DNA of 64,000 bases from Eledone cirrhosa (lineage: Eukaryota): positions 35,588,001-35,652,000 of the forward strand of contig OZ024746.1 in the NCBI GenBank assembly GCA_964016885.1. Reading direction: 5' to 3'. Position 1 is the stretch's first letter. Each line of letters begins with the position of its first letter. The translations under genes and the position numbers were made by a program. This document shows, one piece after another, positions 853 through 60,642 of the stretch. The notes below the pieces were generated by a model. That model did no database searches, was not told where the DNA came from, and saw nothing but the letters and a program-made list of their open reading frames with translations.

Positions 853-1216
853 TTAGAAAGTGAGGTTTTTTTTACAAAATGAAAAATAACCGAGGTGTCC
901 TACACGAGTGGAAGTATAAAGAAAAAGGGATGAAATCGAAAATGCAACTGAAGTCTTATTTTTTTAAAAATATATATATTTATTTGGTTCCTTTACCGGT
1001 TTCGCAGTTCTTCTGCTTTTCAAAAGGTGAGTTGAGATGGAGGGTCTGTGGTTTTTCTCACATCAGATGTGAGAAAAACCACAGACCCTCCATCTCAACT
1101 CACCTTTTGAAAAGCAGAAGAACTGCGAAACCGGTAAAGGAACCAAATAAATATATATATTTTTTAAAAAAATAAGACTTAAGTTGCATTTTCGATTTCA
1201 TCCCTTTTTCTTTATA
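853..1216. mobile_element. Fold-back mini-element between (TA)n tracts, hammerhead in each arm
   Basis: Arms ~915-1064 and 1066-1215 are near-perfect reverse complements centred on catc-a-gatg; unpaired tail 853-914. Confidence 0.85.
1103..1140 (+). ncRNA. Minimal type I hammerhead ribozyme, U3-A8 core variant (mirror copy 990-1027, minus)
   Basis: cctt-TTGAAAA-gcag aagaa ctgc-GAAA-ccgg-TA-aagg. Stem I cctt/aagg, stem II gcag/ctgc, palindromic stem III (ACCGGT), GUA cleavage triplet. Confidence 0.75.
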
Positions 1217-1440
1217 TATATATATATATATATATATATATATATATATATATATATATATATATATATATATATATATATATATATATATATATATATG
1301 TATATATATATATATATATATATACATACATACATATACATATATATATATATATATATATATATATATATATACGTATATATATATATATATATATACA
1401 TACATACATATACATATATATATATATATATATATATATA

Positions 1441-1633
1441 TAGGGTATTTCAAAAAATTTGATATCAATGGCCTGTTTCCAAGGTTGTCACATTGAAATA
1501 TATATTGTGAATTAATGATATAGCGTGGACATGTTTTGAGGAATGAATCTTGTTACTCAACATGGAGCCTGCTTAGTCGTAGTTTCTGGGATATTTACAT
1601 CTCAAATGATATTAAATTCTTTGAAACACCCTG
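1441..1633. mobile_element. Tc1/mariner-type MITE
   Basis: TIRs tagggtatttcaaaaaatttgatatca ... tgatattaaattctttgaaacaccctg, flanked by TA; CAGGGTGTTTC-type end. Confidence 0.75.
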
Positions 1634-1654
1634 TATATATATATGTATATATAT

Positions 1655-56510: not shown

Positions 56511-56567
56511 CATATATATATATATATATATATATATATATATATATATATATATATATATATATAT

Positions 56568-59500
56568 GGGGGGAGGTTATAGTTCACTTGAAGCATTGTG
56601 TAATGAGGTATAAACGTTTGTATATGTATAATAAAGCCAAAAGAATGCAGGTATGGACATAGAATAAAGAATGCAAATGCAAAATATATTGTTGACAATT
56701 AGTCTTTTACATTAGATTTATTTAAATGTCCTTAATTTTCGAGATAATATCTCTTCTTCGGAGAGAAGTAAAGCGGTTAAACCAGTGTTCTAAATAGCTT
56801 TCCAATTCATGCTGACAGGAAATGGTATAGAGTGTCCGTTCTATCTCTAATGTCAAAGAGTTAAGGTTAGGTGGATAAAGAGTAGTCTCCCATTAAAAGG
56901 GTTTTTTTTGTACATGCCTGTTTAAGTGTGTGGGAGAATGCATGAAGGTGTAAGTATGTGAGTGTTTGTGTGTGAGAGTGAGAAGATGTGTCTATACGTA
57001 AATGTGGGGGATAGATGTTATTTCGTGTTAGAACTGGTCTTTGTGTGTGTATGTGTGTGTGTGAGAGAGAATAAGTGGAGGTGTAAGTGTGTGTATGTGC
57101 GTGTGTGTGCGTGCGTGTGTGTGTTCATGTGTGTGTGGGGGATGTGTGTAAATATGGGGCTAGAAGCCTTATCATGTTATAAATTGGGTCTTGAGTTCTA
57201 GTCTATTATTGATTGGTGGTTGTGTTTTGTCTATAATTAGTGCTTCCTTAATTCTAAGAATGCCGAGGTTTCTTTCCTTAGTTTCTATCCTAACTGTTAT
57301 GGTTTTGTCGGTGTTTTTGCATTTAACTAGGTGTCTCTTAAATGAGGAAGCTTTAGTATTGAGGTGTTCTTTCATTCTTATGTGGAGTGGTCTGGTGGTG
57401 CTACCTACGTAGAAGTTGCTGCATTTGTCACACTCTAGTCTGTATACGACGTAAGCCTGGTGGCATAGGTCTGTGTCGTAGATAGGGCAGTTGGCTAGCC
57501 TGCAGCAGTTGTATGTCTGGTGGAGTGTTTTTTGATTAGCTGTCCGCGTAGAGAAAGACCTGTTCACAACTGTAAAGAAACTCTTCCAGCTATCTGAAAA
57601 GCGCGCCAAAGCCGGCTGCCAAATAAACTTCCTAAAACGATGCATGAATAACAACATCATCGCCAAAACTATCAATAACTTGCACCTACCAACTTGCTTC
57701 AAATCACCAGGCCTCAAACGATCAATTAGTTACATACACAAATTCTGCCTAAGATACTTCATACAACACCTACACCGCACGCTACAACACCACATACAGA
57801 CTATTTCCAGCCTTGTACCACAACTCGCTGAAACTCCAGAACCTCTGTCCAGAGTTATCTCCGCGGCTATAAACAGGTCATACCACCATCGCCGAGACTA
57901 CGAGAAAATACGCCTAGCGCAAACATTTCTCAAACTCGGCACGTCTAACCGTCTTAACAACATCCCAACTCTAAGCAACAACAGAGGCGAACAAGACGGT
58001 ACCAACACCGAACCTAACGGCGCCCCGACCAACAACACACCTGACGCAAAGCACCTCGTCACAGACTTGACAGGACCCCTCTCCCGAGTGGAATTAGACC
58101 TCCTCAGCCTGGGTCCCAAGTTTATATTGAAACAGAGACTGGACGACAAATTATGGCTCAACATAGAAACGAATTTCTGTCGAGCTACCTACCAACTAAA
58201 ATGGATATCGACTCACGTAATCTAACAAACCCAGATTCCCGATATACCAACTGGATCGCCCACTCTGTCCACCGCCTGCCAACCGCGAGCTTGAAGAAAA
58301 ACTCTCGAGGCTAAAACATTCCGTATTTAACATCTTACGGAAACAGAAAGAAGATAGCCCAAAACCTCTCCAGGACACAACAACTCGCCCTGAAGAACCT
58401 ACGGAATAGGGAACTTATATACTTACCATCCGACAAAGGTAAAGAGTTTTGCGTCATCACTCAAGCCACATACAACAACCTAGCCTTTGAACACCTAAGC
58501 GACAATGAATAATATACAGATATCCCAGACATGACTGCAGCCCAGATCGAATAACAGACCAAGTCCATCTGGTTCGATACATGTAGGAGAAGACAACTCC
58601 CAGATAAAGTTAAGCACAACTACACCACTTGAAATAGCAGACTGCCCTCTTTCTACCACCTCATCAAGACCCACAAGAATACTACTAAGACGCAAATAAG
58701 ACCCATCGTCTCTAGCATAGAAGGACCCCTATACAAAATTTCCTCGCTCCACTGCCAGGTCCTCGAGCCTCTACTCTCCACCTTTCCCGGGCATGTCAGT
58801 AGCTCCGACGAAATTATACGTAGACTACACCAACTCCAGCCAGAACAACTTAAACTAAATAGATAGGCATTTAGCCTCTACGTTGTCTCCCTCTACATTA
58901 CAGTCCCCGCTCATCCAGCTGTCGATTTATTGACGCACTGCGTGGTCGTAGAGGACATCCACTGCTACGCCCTCCATACGACGGACATACACCAGCTTTT
59001 GTCCTTCACAGTAGACAACACGTACTTCACCTTCCACCACCACACATACAGACAGACAACAGGATTACCCATGGGATACAGCCTATCGGGTCTGCTGGCC
59101 ATCACCTATATGAACCAGCTAGAATGCCGAGCCCTCAACACCTGCCATTCCCATACCTTCTTCACCCGATATGTAGATGACATACTCATCCTTACATCAT
59201 CCCGTGAGGAGGCAAATAAAATATACACAATATTCTCCAGTATGGACGCCAGTATAAAGTTCAGCATGGAACACCCCGATGACCGCGGATCCCTATCCCT
59301 ACTGGACTTCCAACTCAGGGTAACAAAGAAAGGCAACATCCACACCTGCTTCTATAAAAAAGCCGCCAGCAGGGACCTGTTCGTACATTTCAGATCGGCC
59401 CTCCCAGCCGGCGCTAAGTTCGGATACATAAGGAACGAACTAACACGTATCCGGAACAAATGCACCGACGCTAGAGACCGAGACACACACAGCACATTTC

Positions 59501-60642
59501 CTGGAAGTACTCAAACTGAACGGATACACGACATCCACCATAAACTGTGCCAGAAAGAACAGAGGACACCACACTCGAAGCACTAACACTTGCTTCCTGA
59601 AGCTCCCACACCTCAGTGACGAAACAACAACAGCCATCCGCAGAGCTATCAGACGAGAGAGACAAGATATCCAACTGACCCACTCAGGTCCTTCTCTACG
59701 CGGACAGCTAACCAAAAAACACTCCACCAGGCATACAACTGCTGCAGGCTAGCCACCTGCCCCATCTACGACACAGACCTATGCCACCAGGCTTACGTCA
59801 CATACAGACTAGAGTGTGACAAATGCAGCAACTTCTACGTAAGTAGCACCACCAGACGACTCCACATAAGAATAAAAGAACACCTCAATACTAACGTTTC
59901 CTCATTTAAGAAACACCTAGTTAAATGCAAAAATACCGACAAAACCATAACAGTTAGGATAGAAACTAAGGAAAGAAACGTCGGCAATCTTAGAATTAAG
60001 GAAGCACTAAATATAGACAAAACACAACCACCAATTAATAATAGACTAGAACTCAAGACCCAATTTATAACTTGATAGAGCTTCTAGCCCCATATTTACA
60101 CACACCTCCCACACACACATGCACACACACACGCACGCACATATACACACATACACACACACACGCTTACACATCCACTTATTCTCTCTCACAGACACAC
60201 ATACACACACAAAGACCAGTTCTAACACGAGATAACATCTATCCTCCACATTTACGTATCGACTTATCTTCTCACTCTCACACACAAACACTCACATACT
60301 TACACTTTCATGCATTTTCCCACACACTTAAACAGGCATGTACAAAAAAAACCTTTTAAAGGGAGACTACTCTTTATCCACCTAACCTCAACACTTTGAC
60401 ATTAGAGACAGAACAGATACTCTATACCATTTCCTGTCAGCATGACTTGGCAAGCTATTTAGAACACTGGTTTAACCGCTTTACTTCCCTCCGAAGAAGA
60501 GATATTATCTCGAAAATTAAGGACATTTAAATAAATCTAAGGTAAAAGACTAATTGTCAACAATATCTTTTGCATTGGCATTCTTTATTCTATGTCCATA
60601 CCTGCATTGTTTTGGCTTTATCATACATATACAAACGTTTAT
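56568..60642 (+). mobile_element. Penelope-like element (possibly Nematis-like) with ~950-bp inverted pLTR at its 5' side
   Basis: 56608-57562 is the reverse complement of 59685-60642; tail 56568-56607 on the inverted arm only; hammerhead-like CCGAAGA-a-gagat att atctc-GAAA-at-TA-agg at 60487-60522. Confidence 0.92.
57563..60074 (+). pseudogene. PLE RT plus GIY-YIG ORF, disrupted
   Basis: LLSLGPKF; YLPSDKGKEFCVI; FYHLIKTHK; IRPIVSS; SLYVVSLYITVP; YRQTTGLPMGYSLS; RYVDDIL; LSLLDF; FVHFRSALP; C..CPI; YRLECDKCSNFYV(G)ST; IKEAL; PPINNRLE. Confidence 0.93.

Follow-up and report, generated by a model that had tools for sequence, protein, structure and literature searches.

Paired tail-less and tailed arms in inverted-repeat insertions of Penelope-like elements of Eledone cirrhosa point to probable twin priming

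The inverted-repeat units of Penelope-like elements (PLEs) in Eledone cirrhosa consist of two head-to-head arms that end at two fixed sites one tail-length apart, a tail-less arm at site N and a tailed arm at site T. Of 204 head-to-head pairs in 316 genomic stretches, sampled as the best-scoring 20-40 matches per query with five of the nine successful queries containing the tail, 198 join one N arm to one T arm; the exceptions are one T+T pair, two N+N pairs and three left unresolved. Since this pairing is strict, the units likely form from two neighbouring starts on the same RNA, and the sequence comparisons make it probable that each unit is a single PLE insertion, made by twin priming of both nicked strands on one RNA. 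Whether such priming would be the programmed, normal route of PLE integration, with a dimer, a duplicated stem-loop, one RNA and cDNAs that prime each other, we regard as evenly balanced.

The analysis centres on a window, meaning the whole 64,000-nt stretch of contig OZ024746.1 (assembly GCA_964016885.1, positions 35,588,001 to 35,652,000). Inverted arms were recovered by self-BLAST and a repeat finder at all 12 places named in the initial annotation, with arm identities of 75-99%, and at two further places, 14337-14765 and 31664-33154. Units are listed in Table 1 and referred to below by their first position. As had been proposed, exactly one arm of each of the 12 units carries a tail, of 41-160 nt, and (TA)n flanks are the rule: 23 of 24 unit ends lie no more than 30 nt from (TA)n of at least five repeats, against 14.4% of window positions, the sole other end being a (CA)n end. 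An enrichment check run on the window found both hammerheads and TA flanks above background. The reading as PLE insertions holds for all 12 units, which belong to nine families (A to I) that include Hydra-clade and canonical PLEs. The families had been called unrelated; three units fall into A and two into D, and a cis motif is common to A, B, C, E, F and H. Unit sizes do not form the smooth continuum described earlier: arms accumulate at a sharp edge, and 97 of 160 units (a count that still includes two duplicates) are at most 600 nt long. Nor is the layout a new class, as it is already published, paired opposite-strand hammerheads included, in the accessible text of PMC8557442, PMC3846280 and PMC4209133.

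Table 1. Features of Penelope-like insertions in the 64,000-nt window
Feature	Position	Strand	Details
Family G mini unit	853..1213		Centre at family run-off edge; tailed arm minus, tail about 855-918; tail-less arm plus
Family F unit	1655..2937		Long tailed arm minus, 160-nt tail 1655-1815; short tail-less arm 2636-2932; hammerhead a CCGAAGA-core variant (core by eye), intact homologue at 36813
Family A (putative Hydra clade) mini unit	3879..4337		Near-perfect palindrome, 5-nt loop; 84-nt tail, 3879-3962, on minus arm
Bulged stem-loop 1	3944..3963	minus	NCTC-stem-2-nt bulge-GAGN', just 3' of tail-less (N) end; predicted RT start signal
Type-I hammerhead, left arm of unit 3879	4011..4075	minus	Strict descriptor
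Type-I hammerhead, right arm of unit 3879	4233..4297	plus	Strict descriptor
Family H unit	25521..25890		72-nt tail ending in (CA)n; arms begin below hammerhead core
Family A mini unit, older subfamily	27322..27740		Tail on plus arm
Hammerhead of unit 27322	27366-27430	minus	Intact
Family D unit	30111..30610		Tail-less arm longer; 58-nt tail on plus arm
Hammerhead of unit 30111	30270-30314	minus	
Solo tail-less arm, family B	35668..35830	plus	Hammerhead 35738-35808; absent from initial annotation
Family C unit	35870..36449		Hammerhead 36242-36307 plus; 97-nt tail
Family D unit	37285..37855		Both hammerheads damaged
Family E unit	41414..42375		Non-coding non-autonomous PLE, no hammerhead found; plus arm crosses monomer junction and contains both stem-loop sites
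Family A large unit	46012..49690		Long tail-less arm minus; short tailed arm plus, with 1.3-kb internal deletion
RT-thumb/GIY-YIG ORF piece	47450-48655	minus	In long tail-less arm of unit 46012
Hammerhead of unit 46012	46061-46126	minus	
Hammerhead of unit 46012	49499-49558	plus	
Family B (putative Hydra clade) unit	53932..56511		Long tailed arm plus, with EN fragment 54912-55367
Hammerhead of unit 53932	53975-54045	minus	
Hammerhead of unit 53932	56317-56387	plus	
Family I (canonical C-terminal-EN PLE) unit	56568..60643		
Tail-less arm of unit 56568		plus	Near-full-length; RT 58867-59586, GIY-YIG 59620-60075
Short tailed arm of unit 56568		minus	41-nt tail 56568-56608; GIY-YIG 57172-57729

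A strict type-I hammerhead descriptor matched the window 10 times, against a mean of 0.09 (maximum 1) over 100 shuffles, and nine of the 10 matches fall inside the listed units, every one of them pointing away from the centre. The earlier description of most units as carrying a hammerhead on each arm was borne out in part only. Intact canonical cores occupy both arms in just 3 of 12 units (3879, 46012 and 53932), and variant cores do so in two others, as U3-A8 in 853 and as CCGAAGA with a 3-bp stem I (by eye and folding) in 56568; four units have one usable arm (1655 by eye, 27322, 30111 and 35870), 37285 retains damaged remnants, and none was found in 25521 and 41414. At the family level, the hammerhead of the pLTR has a canonical core in A, B, C and D and a variant core in F, G, H and I (CCGACGA with a 60-nt stem II in other copies of H), and none was found in E. 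Rfam gave no hammerhead among the 150 matches listed of 204 in the window, nearly all of those listed being miRNA models on microsatellites or hairpins under gathering scores, and no match at gathering score at eight loci. Hammerhead cleavage was rejected as the origin of the arm ends, the cleavage site lying at -140 (A) and -132 (B) from the tail end, where no arms pile up. As for the earlier suggestion of long dsRNA with ribozyme-defined ends, a read-through RNA of a palindrome would be expected to contain a single hammerhead in sense orientation, and that one would be part of the hairpin's pairing.

With tail-blind queries, all 49 resolved pairs are N+T (A 15, G 15, F 10, C 9). Arms without a visible partner within 1.5 kb number 15/30 in G, 17/30 in F, 18/30 in C and 11/28 in A. 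Among 34 paired family-A units the T arm is longer in 11, the N arm in 13, and 10 are near-equal, the longest N-arm excess being 3.5 kb against 0.3 kb; an inverted tail-only fragment without overlap with the N arm is found in nine units. These figures bear on cDNA snap-back, proposed earlier as the routine route, in which a cDNA folds back and copies itself. In its pure form it is impossible for the 13 family-A units with the longer N arm, for window units 46012 and 56568 and for the nine tail-only units, because a fold-back copy cannot exceed its template or gain a tail that the template lacks. Single units whose T arm is longer could arise in this way, and snap-back would account for identical haplotypes and microhomology; R2 produces snap-backs, particularly after full-length cDNA (PMC11371274). 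Tight hairpins are present at loci L001, L013, L180 and L224; at L180 and L224 the fold-back lacks a terminal end, which shows that snap-back, or else a later deletion, does take place. Equal arms are in excess (10/31 against 5.2 expected); the excess is gone once arms at the run-off edge described below are set aside (2/19 against 2.6), and short loops show no excess away from that edge. A hybrid route, with snap-back of the N cDNA and only the tail contributed by another priming event, would still require that event at T. We consider snap-back in either form unlikely.

Arms of the same unit differ at 2 of 122 polymorphic sites in family A and 20 of 475 in family B, against 46% and a mean of 137, respectively, in permutations. 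Both arms come from one source haplotype, which would fit one RNA or two RNAs of the same locus. Gene conversion was rejected as the cause of this likeness, private variants being found on one arm 87 times and on both arms 4 times. An A>C change at family B position -225 occurs on eight T arms and one N arm, across haplotypes. In the two-RNA reading, the source locus supplies two RNAs, and one protein subunit always uses site N on the first, the other subunit site T on the second. It covers N+T pairing, arms of which either may be longer, and tail-only fragments, requires no strand displacement, and agrees with the shared haplotypes provided that a single source is dominant at any one time. 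It needs a built-in asymmetry, however, although each RNA has the two sites. Units of mixed haplotype are almost missing, even though several similarly diverged haplotypes occur side by side, and rare deletions are common to both arms in L034 and L035. We judge two RNAs improbable. It is scarcely credible that the units are fold-back artefacts of assembly or library preparation, or that two elements inserted independently into one TA tract: arms of a unit diverge by 1-9% with private mutations, their ends are fixed to the base with a tail on one arm, and they share a haplotype and abut without TA in between. One junction was compared with three public runs, in which no contig listed bridged it, contigs being short in repeats.

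The 31 junctions comprise 21 with microhomology, nine with insertions and one blunt. Some centres lie on natural short palindromes, namely ATCCGGAT in four family-A units and CATATG in B, which speaks for self-priming on an antisense RNA template (Arkhipova 2013), put forward in PMC3846280. The majority of junctions are not at palindromes, the hammerhead and the stem-loops belong to the sense strand, start sites on that strand have been demonstrated in vitro (PMC11167929), and antisense self-priming yields neither the N+T rule nor tail-only fragments; we hold it to be highly improbable.

Mini-palindromes end at a sharp family-specific edge. The densest 14-nt window of arm ends holds 28 of 111 ends in A, 24 of 68 in B, 19 of 35 in C and 34 of 48 in G, with pyrimidine-C-A at its upstream edge in each of the four; the edge is weak in F (6/37). 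Counted from the N end, the edges lie at -192 (A), -166 (B), -165 (C) and -147 (G). Such an edge is likely to be the RNA 5' end. The sharp edge, the varied microhomology junctions and the haplotypes common with long copies indicate that minis arise de novo, and the earlier expectation of fixed outer ends with variable centres is thus confirmed. The further suggestion, that the palindromes are themselves mobile as MITE-like or retrozyme-like units, fared less well. Identical centres do recur (4/31 in A, several in G) and there are thousands of first-look candidates per family. Minis are nevertheless scattered over the haplotypes of long copies, their junction sequences differ at one site, the same family-G centre occurs with an extra base on either arm, and minis are without stem-loop 2, which leaves self-propagation very improbable. 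As candidate identities, MITEs were rejected on the asymmetric ends, the variable centres and the haplotypes in common with coding copies, and non-LTR retrozymes because minis are inverted and not tandem.

The cis motif is a bulged RNA stem-loop, found just 3' of both N and T in families A, B, E and F and 3' of N in C and H. Its outer pair varies (A-U, G-C or U-A), and 0.02-0.24 are expected per element in shuffles, with the motif having been defined on the same sites used to score it. Families D and I do not have it, G has it only in part, and it was missed in two single copies, at L032 and at the T site of L162. No TA tract is present at the family-I T site.

Under twin priming, the RNA would begin at an internal promoter in the upstream pLTR, and the protein, probably as a dimer, would bind the two bulged stem-loops 7-9 nt 3' of each site, where short TA tracts could aid annealing of target 3' ends. 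One cDNA would start at N and the other at T, the trailing cDNA displacing the leading one, so that either arm may be longer or the T cDNA may stop within the tail. The cDNA 3' ends would then anneal, through 1-8 nt of microhomology or a templated insertion, and prime each other's second strand. Starts at the sites of the 5' pLTR would let the two cDNAs run off the RNA 5' end, resulting in palindromes of 0.3-0.5 kb; long and more-than-monomer arms would need a tandem or circular template. If such priming is programmed, a single rule would account for the inverted pLTR and the one-sided tail as well as for mini-palindromes in their thousands. The minimal cis signal would then consist of the two stem-loops, which would also mobilise the hammerhead-less, non-autonomous family E.

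Family I copy L176 has an 856-aa ORF with RVT_1 (2e-14) and GIY-YIG (2e-5). Its motifs GPKF, SDKG and, in EN, C-x2-C with downstream histidines match those of the canonical PLE clades (Nematis or Neptune/Poseidon). Pfam gave no match to family A or B proteins; natural copies of both show YRDD and then GIY-YIG-type motifs in order, and motifs place them, provisionally, in the Hydra clade. They have DKT instead of DKG (SDKTNN in A, SDKTSN in B) and, in natural ORF pieces, a CxCX5C linker, no CCHH, CxxC and CxH around E/N, and a C-terminal EN; they also insert in (TA)n targets, as the Hydra clade does. Family A has RWR where the Hydra clade has RWK, a region not open in the B copy examined. Monomers are about 4.2 kb (A) and 3.5 kb (B), above the Hydra-clade size of under 3 kb, which is a tendency and not a strict criterion (PMC8557442, section 11). 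Partial pLTR tandems with a tail contiguous with the ORF start region are seen in L121 (A), L162 (B), L164-L166 (I) and L212 (F), and the 198 N+T pairs each present an adjacent inverted 5'-truncated copy with a tail at one end. No ORF was recovered for families C, D, G and H; an own-genome search with a family D arm gave no match, and D was sampled only through bystander copies. Family E is a non-coding, hammerhead-less non-autonomous PLE with a monomer of about 0.59-0.66 kb, head-to-tail multimers and PLE-type ends. Its mobile unit is the monomer, not the palindrome. A retrozyme identity was rejected for E because, although it is tandem, no hammerhead was detected.

The elements and their layout are already known. 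Partial tandems, a head-to-head inverted 5'-truncated copy and a one-end tail (Craig et al. 2021, PMC8557442 Fig. 2; Arkhipova et al. 2013, PMC3846280; Schostak et al. 2008, PMC2377424) have been described, as have (TA)n targets and a hammerhead in the pLTR (same sources), with tails of 30-40 nt against 41-160 nt here. How PLEs make inverted repeats and a tail is stated to be open in PMC8557442; across the accessible text of these three papers the mechanism is left open, or EN-mediated resolution or antisense self-priming is suggested, and that text neither counts N+T pairs nor mentions tail-only fragments, a run-off edge or a duplicated cis stem-loop. An internal promoter has been described for D. 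virilis Penelope (PMC2377424). The anole Poseidon element PAc nicks and extends both strands in vitro (Frangieh et al. 2024, PMC11167929); reverse transcription starts at two adjacent internal sites defining the tail, a dimer is predicted, hammerhead cleavage is not needed, and later steps of insertion were left unvalidated. That work does not tie the two start sites to two arms of one insertion, and PAc initiates, without homology to its target, in an AC-rich stem-loop; the bulged one found here after each site is different. Schistosoma has dual min-HHRs, paired on opposite strands at distances of 100-700 bp (Cervera and De la Pena 2014, PMC4209133), that share with those here a long helix II, a palindromic helix III and the U3-A8 core variant; in the accessible text they are not analysed as inverted insertion units. 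Family E resembles MRC1-type non-autonomous PLEs, likewise short, non-coding, in head-to-tail multimers and with PLE-type ends (PMC8557442). Non-LTR retrozymes (bioRxiv 10.64898/2026.07.22.740005) are tandem with a hammerhead, unlike E, which has none, and the minis, which are inverted.

A literature search on PLE priming, twin priming and snap-back found no statement of a twin-priming model. Twin priming would account for a long-unsolved step of Penelope transposition, and this genome offers hundreds of young events that exclude simple snap-back and, at the ends of both arms, a specific cis signal that can be mutated, so that the question can be put directly to the in vitro PLE system already available. 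If true, the model describes a retrotransposon in which obligatory double priming takes care of second-strand synthesis, a matter of interest for RT-based gene insertion. It would also account for an abundant class of palindromes of 0.3-0.5 kb, which annotation tools would take for MITEs or miRNA hairpins. In the twin priming reportedly described for L1 by Ostertag and Kazazian in 2001, two target 3' ends are said to prime on one RNA, and the cDNA ends to join by microhomology, giving an inversion. The second site of L1 is opportunistic and far upstream, so that the segments do not overlap, whereas the second PLE site here is fixed and one tail away, so that the arms overlap and form a palindrome.

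The inverted arms claimed at 12 places in the window of this animal assembly (3.0 Gb) were recovered at all 12, together with two more units. Each unit is a head-to-head inverted pair of Penelope-like element (PLE) arms, and every listed unit has its tail on a single arm. (TA)n touches 23 of the 24 unit ends against a background of 14.4%, and a strict hammerhead descriptor returned 10 motifs versus 0.09 in shuffles. Nine of these 10 lie in listed units and face outward as proposed, but the claim that most units carry one on both arms was too broad: both arms carry an intact hammerhead in 3 units and a variant one in 2, a single arm has one in 4, and in the other 3 it is damaged or absent. 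The variant cores are U3-A8 in family G, CCGAAGA in F and I, and CCGACGA in H, where stem II measures ~60 nt. The families are also fewer than the initial annotation implied, since the 12 units sort into nine (A to I), not twelve.

Features located in the window, with sampled stretches outside it (L numbers)
Feature	Location	Remark
Additional old inverted-repeat units	14337-14765, 31664-33154	outside the initial list
Variant hammerhead core sites	1103-1143, 36808-36860, L293, L310	
Deletion, short arm of unit 46012	48596-48810	1.3 kb
Duplication, left arm of unit 53932	54138-54567	205 nt; in other B copies too
Family B position -225	~56286	A>C makes perfect 8-nt palindrome
Separate broken RT/GIY-YIG-like ORF	51290-53194	CxxxxCxxC linker; Neptune-like by eye; outside inverted units
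SINE-like dispersed repeat	7481-8090, 9446-9636, 12910-13295, 21794-21969, 27935-28109, 40043-40238	150-190 nt; ~ten copies
Other retroelement fragments	40894-41475, 15460-15999, 62970-63620	RTE-like C-terminus, GIY-YIG remnant, unassigned

Family I, the canonical form, has an 856-aa ORF with RT and GIY-YIG and possesses GPKF, DKG and CCHH. Families A and B lack CCHH and possess DKT, CxCX5C and CxxC/CxH, the defining marks of the Hydra clade in section 11 of PMC8557442; an ORF piece of family F is A-like by eye. Terminal repeat (pLTR), tail and ORF were joined by partial tandems, and first-look candidates numbered 152-3171 per query, which are not copy numbers. The units are real and their layout is already known in PLEs, for which inserts biased to (TA)n, with a tail on one side and a 5'-truncated copy in inverse orientation (PMC8557442), palindromic junctions interpreted as self-priming (PMC3846280), and dual hammerheads on opposite strands, 100-700 bp apart and including the U3-A8 variant (PMC4209133), have been described.

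The two arms end at different sites, N for the tail-less and T for the tailed arm, one tail-length apart. Over 316 stretches (1.32 Mb with the window, free of duplicates) there are 204 head-to-head pairs: 198 combine N with T, 1 is T+T, 2 are N+N and 3 were left unassigned, one of which is N+T in a longer stretch. Queries contained the tail for A (first), B, E, H and I; tail-blind queries, counted on their own, gave N+T in 49 of 49 resolved pairs. About half of the tail-blind matches are without a partner within 1.5 kb, some being long or tail-only units and others solos that fit neither type. The sole T+T unit (L200, family H) has (CA)n on both flanks; tails of family H have (CA)n at their ends, and (TC)n replaces (TA)n at tail-less ends in L188, L189, L191, L224, L229 and L233.

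Sequence beyond the tail was read from natural tandem copies. A bulged stem-loop of one pattern (NCTC, a stem that is short and variable, a bulge of 2 nt, GAGN') stands ~7-9 nt 3' of N and again of T in A, B, E and F, its outer pair varying between A-U, G-C and U-A. In C and H, for which the sequence seen runs past N only, it is present at N; it is partial in G and absent in D and I. Shuffles give 0.02-0.24 per element, for a pattern itself derived from these sites. Short TA tracts that merge with the target occur at N ends and, in A, B, E and F, at T ends as well; family I has its T end outside such a tract. Family E, with a monomer of ~0.59-0.66 kb, a longest ORF of 37 aa and no hammerhead found on searching, has both stem-loops, arms often exceeding one monomer, and N+T in 14/14 pairs; it is a non-autonomous PLE.

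Snap-back, in which a fold-back copy of one cDNA makes the second arm, had been proposed as the routine route. Such a copy must be shorter than the first strand and contained in it. In family A, 34 of 40 tailed arms have an N partner; the longer of the two is the T arm in 11 units and the N arm in 13, and lengths are near-equal in 10. N arms of ~3.5 kb face T arms of 0.3-0.56 kb in L035, L036, L046 and L050, and window units 46012 and 56568 also combine a long N with a short T arm. In nine units of five families the inverted tail piece begins at the T end and stops short of the N site, and therefore has no overlap with the other arm. Excess equal-length arms are confined to a run-off edge. Arm lengths and tail-only pieces thus displace snap-back as the routine route; it is retained as a minor or contributing one, because the copies include a few tight fold-backs that lack a terminal end and R2 forms snap-backs (PMC11371274). 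Inverted fragments without a terminal end (L180, L224, L089, L082/L177) are tight fold-backs or L1-type internal inversions.

Both arms of a unit share their source haplotype. Arms mismatch at 2 of 122 polymorphic positions in family A (33 units; 46% under permutation) and at 20 of 475 in B (28 units; 137 under permutation). Later gene conversion is ruled out as the cause, because private variants are confined to one arm in 87 cases and shared by both arms in only 4. The 31 junctions comprise 21 with 1-8 nt microhomology, 9 insertions (several locally templated) and 1 blunt. Arms above one monomer (up to ~1.8; L162, L164, L273, L278, L282) imply a tandem or circular template. The -225 change (counted from the tail end), on 8 tailed and 1 tail-less arm in several haplotypes, is possibly arm-specific and templated.

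Inner arm ends pile up with a sharp upstream edge at pyrimidine-C-A, which holds 28/111 arms in A (whose first sample is biased towards T arms of 272 nt or more), 24/68 in B, 19/35 in C, 34/48 in G and just 6/37 in F. The hammerhead cleavage site was rejected as this edge, which lies elsewhere. The edge is probably the RNA 5' end, which would fit the promoter inside D. virilis Penelope (PMC2377424). Mini-palindromes have haplotypes common to long copies and differing junctions, so they arise repeatedly de novo, and the suggestion that they could be mobile themselves is not supported; identical centres recur where the edge coincides with a short natural palindrome.

The arms are probably products of twin priming, a new and testable reading that replaces snap-back and of which no statement for PLEs was found in the literature searched, which covered non-subscription papers. 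Each target strand would use one site, N or T, both cDNAs would be made on a single template, and their ends would join head-to-head; a single RNA, as opposed to two from one locus, is inferred here, as are a dimeric protein, strand displacement and the start site. In the anole PLE, a predicted dimer, both strands are nicked and extended, and two adjacent internal start sites bound the tail (PMC11167929). The available text of that paper does not tie the two start sites to inverted arms (its supplements gave no matches), and the genomic copies described here would supply the link between two start sites and two arms.
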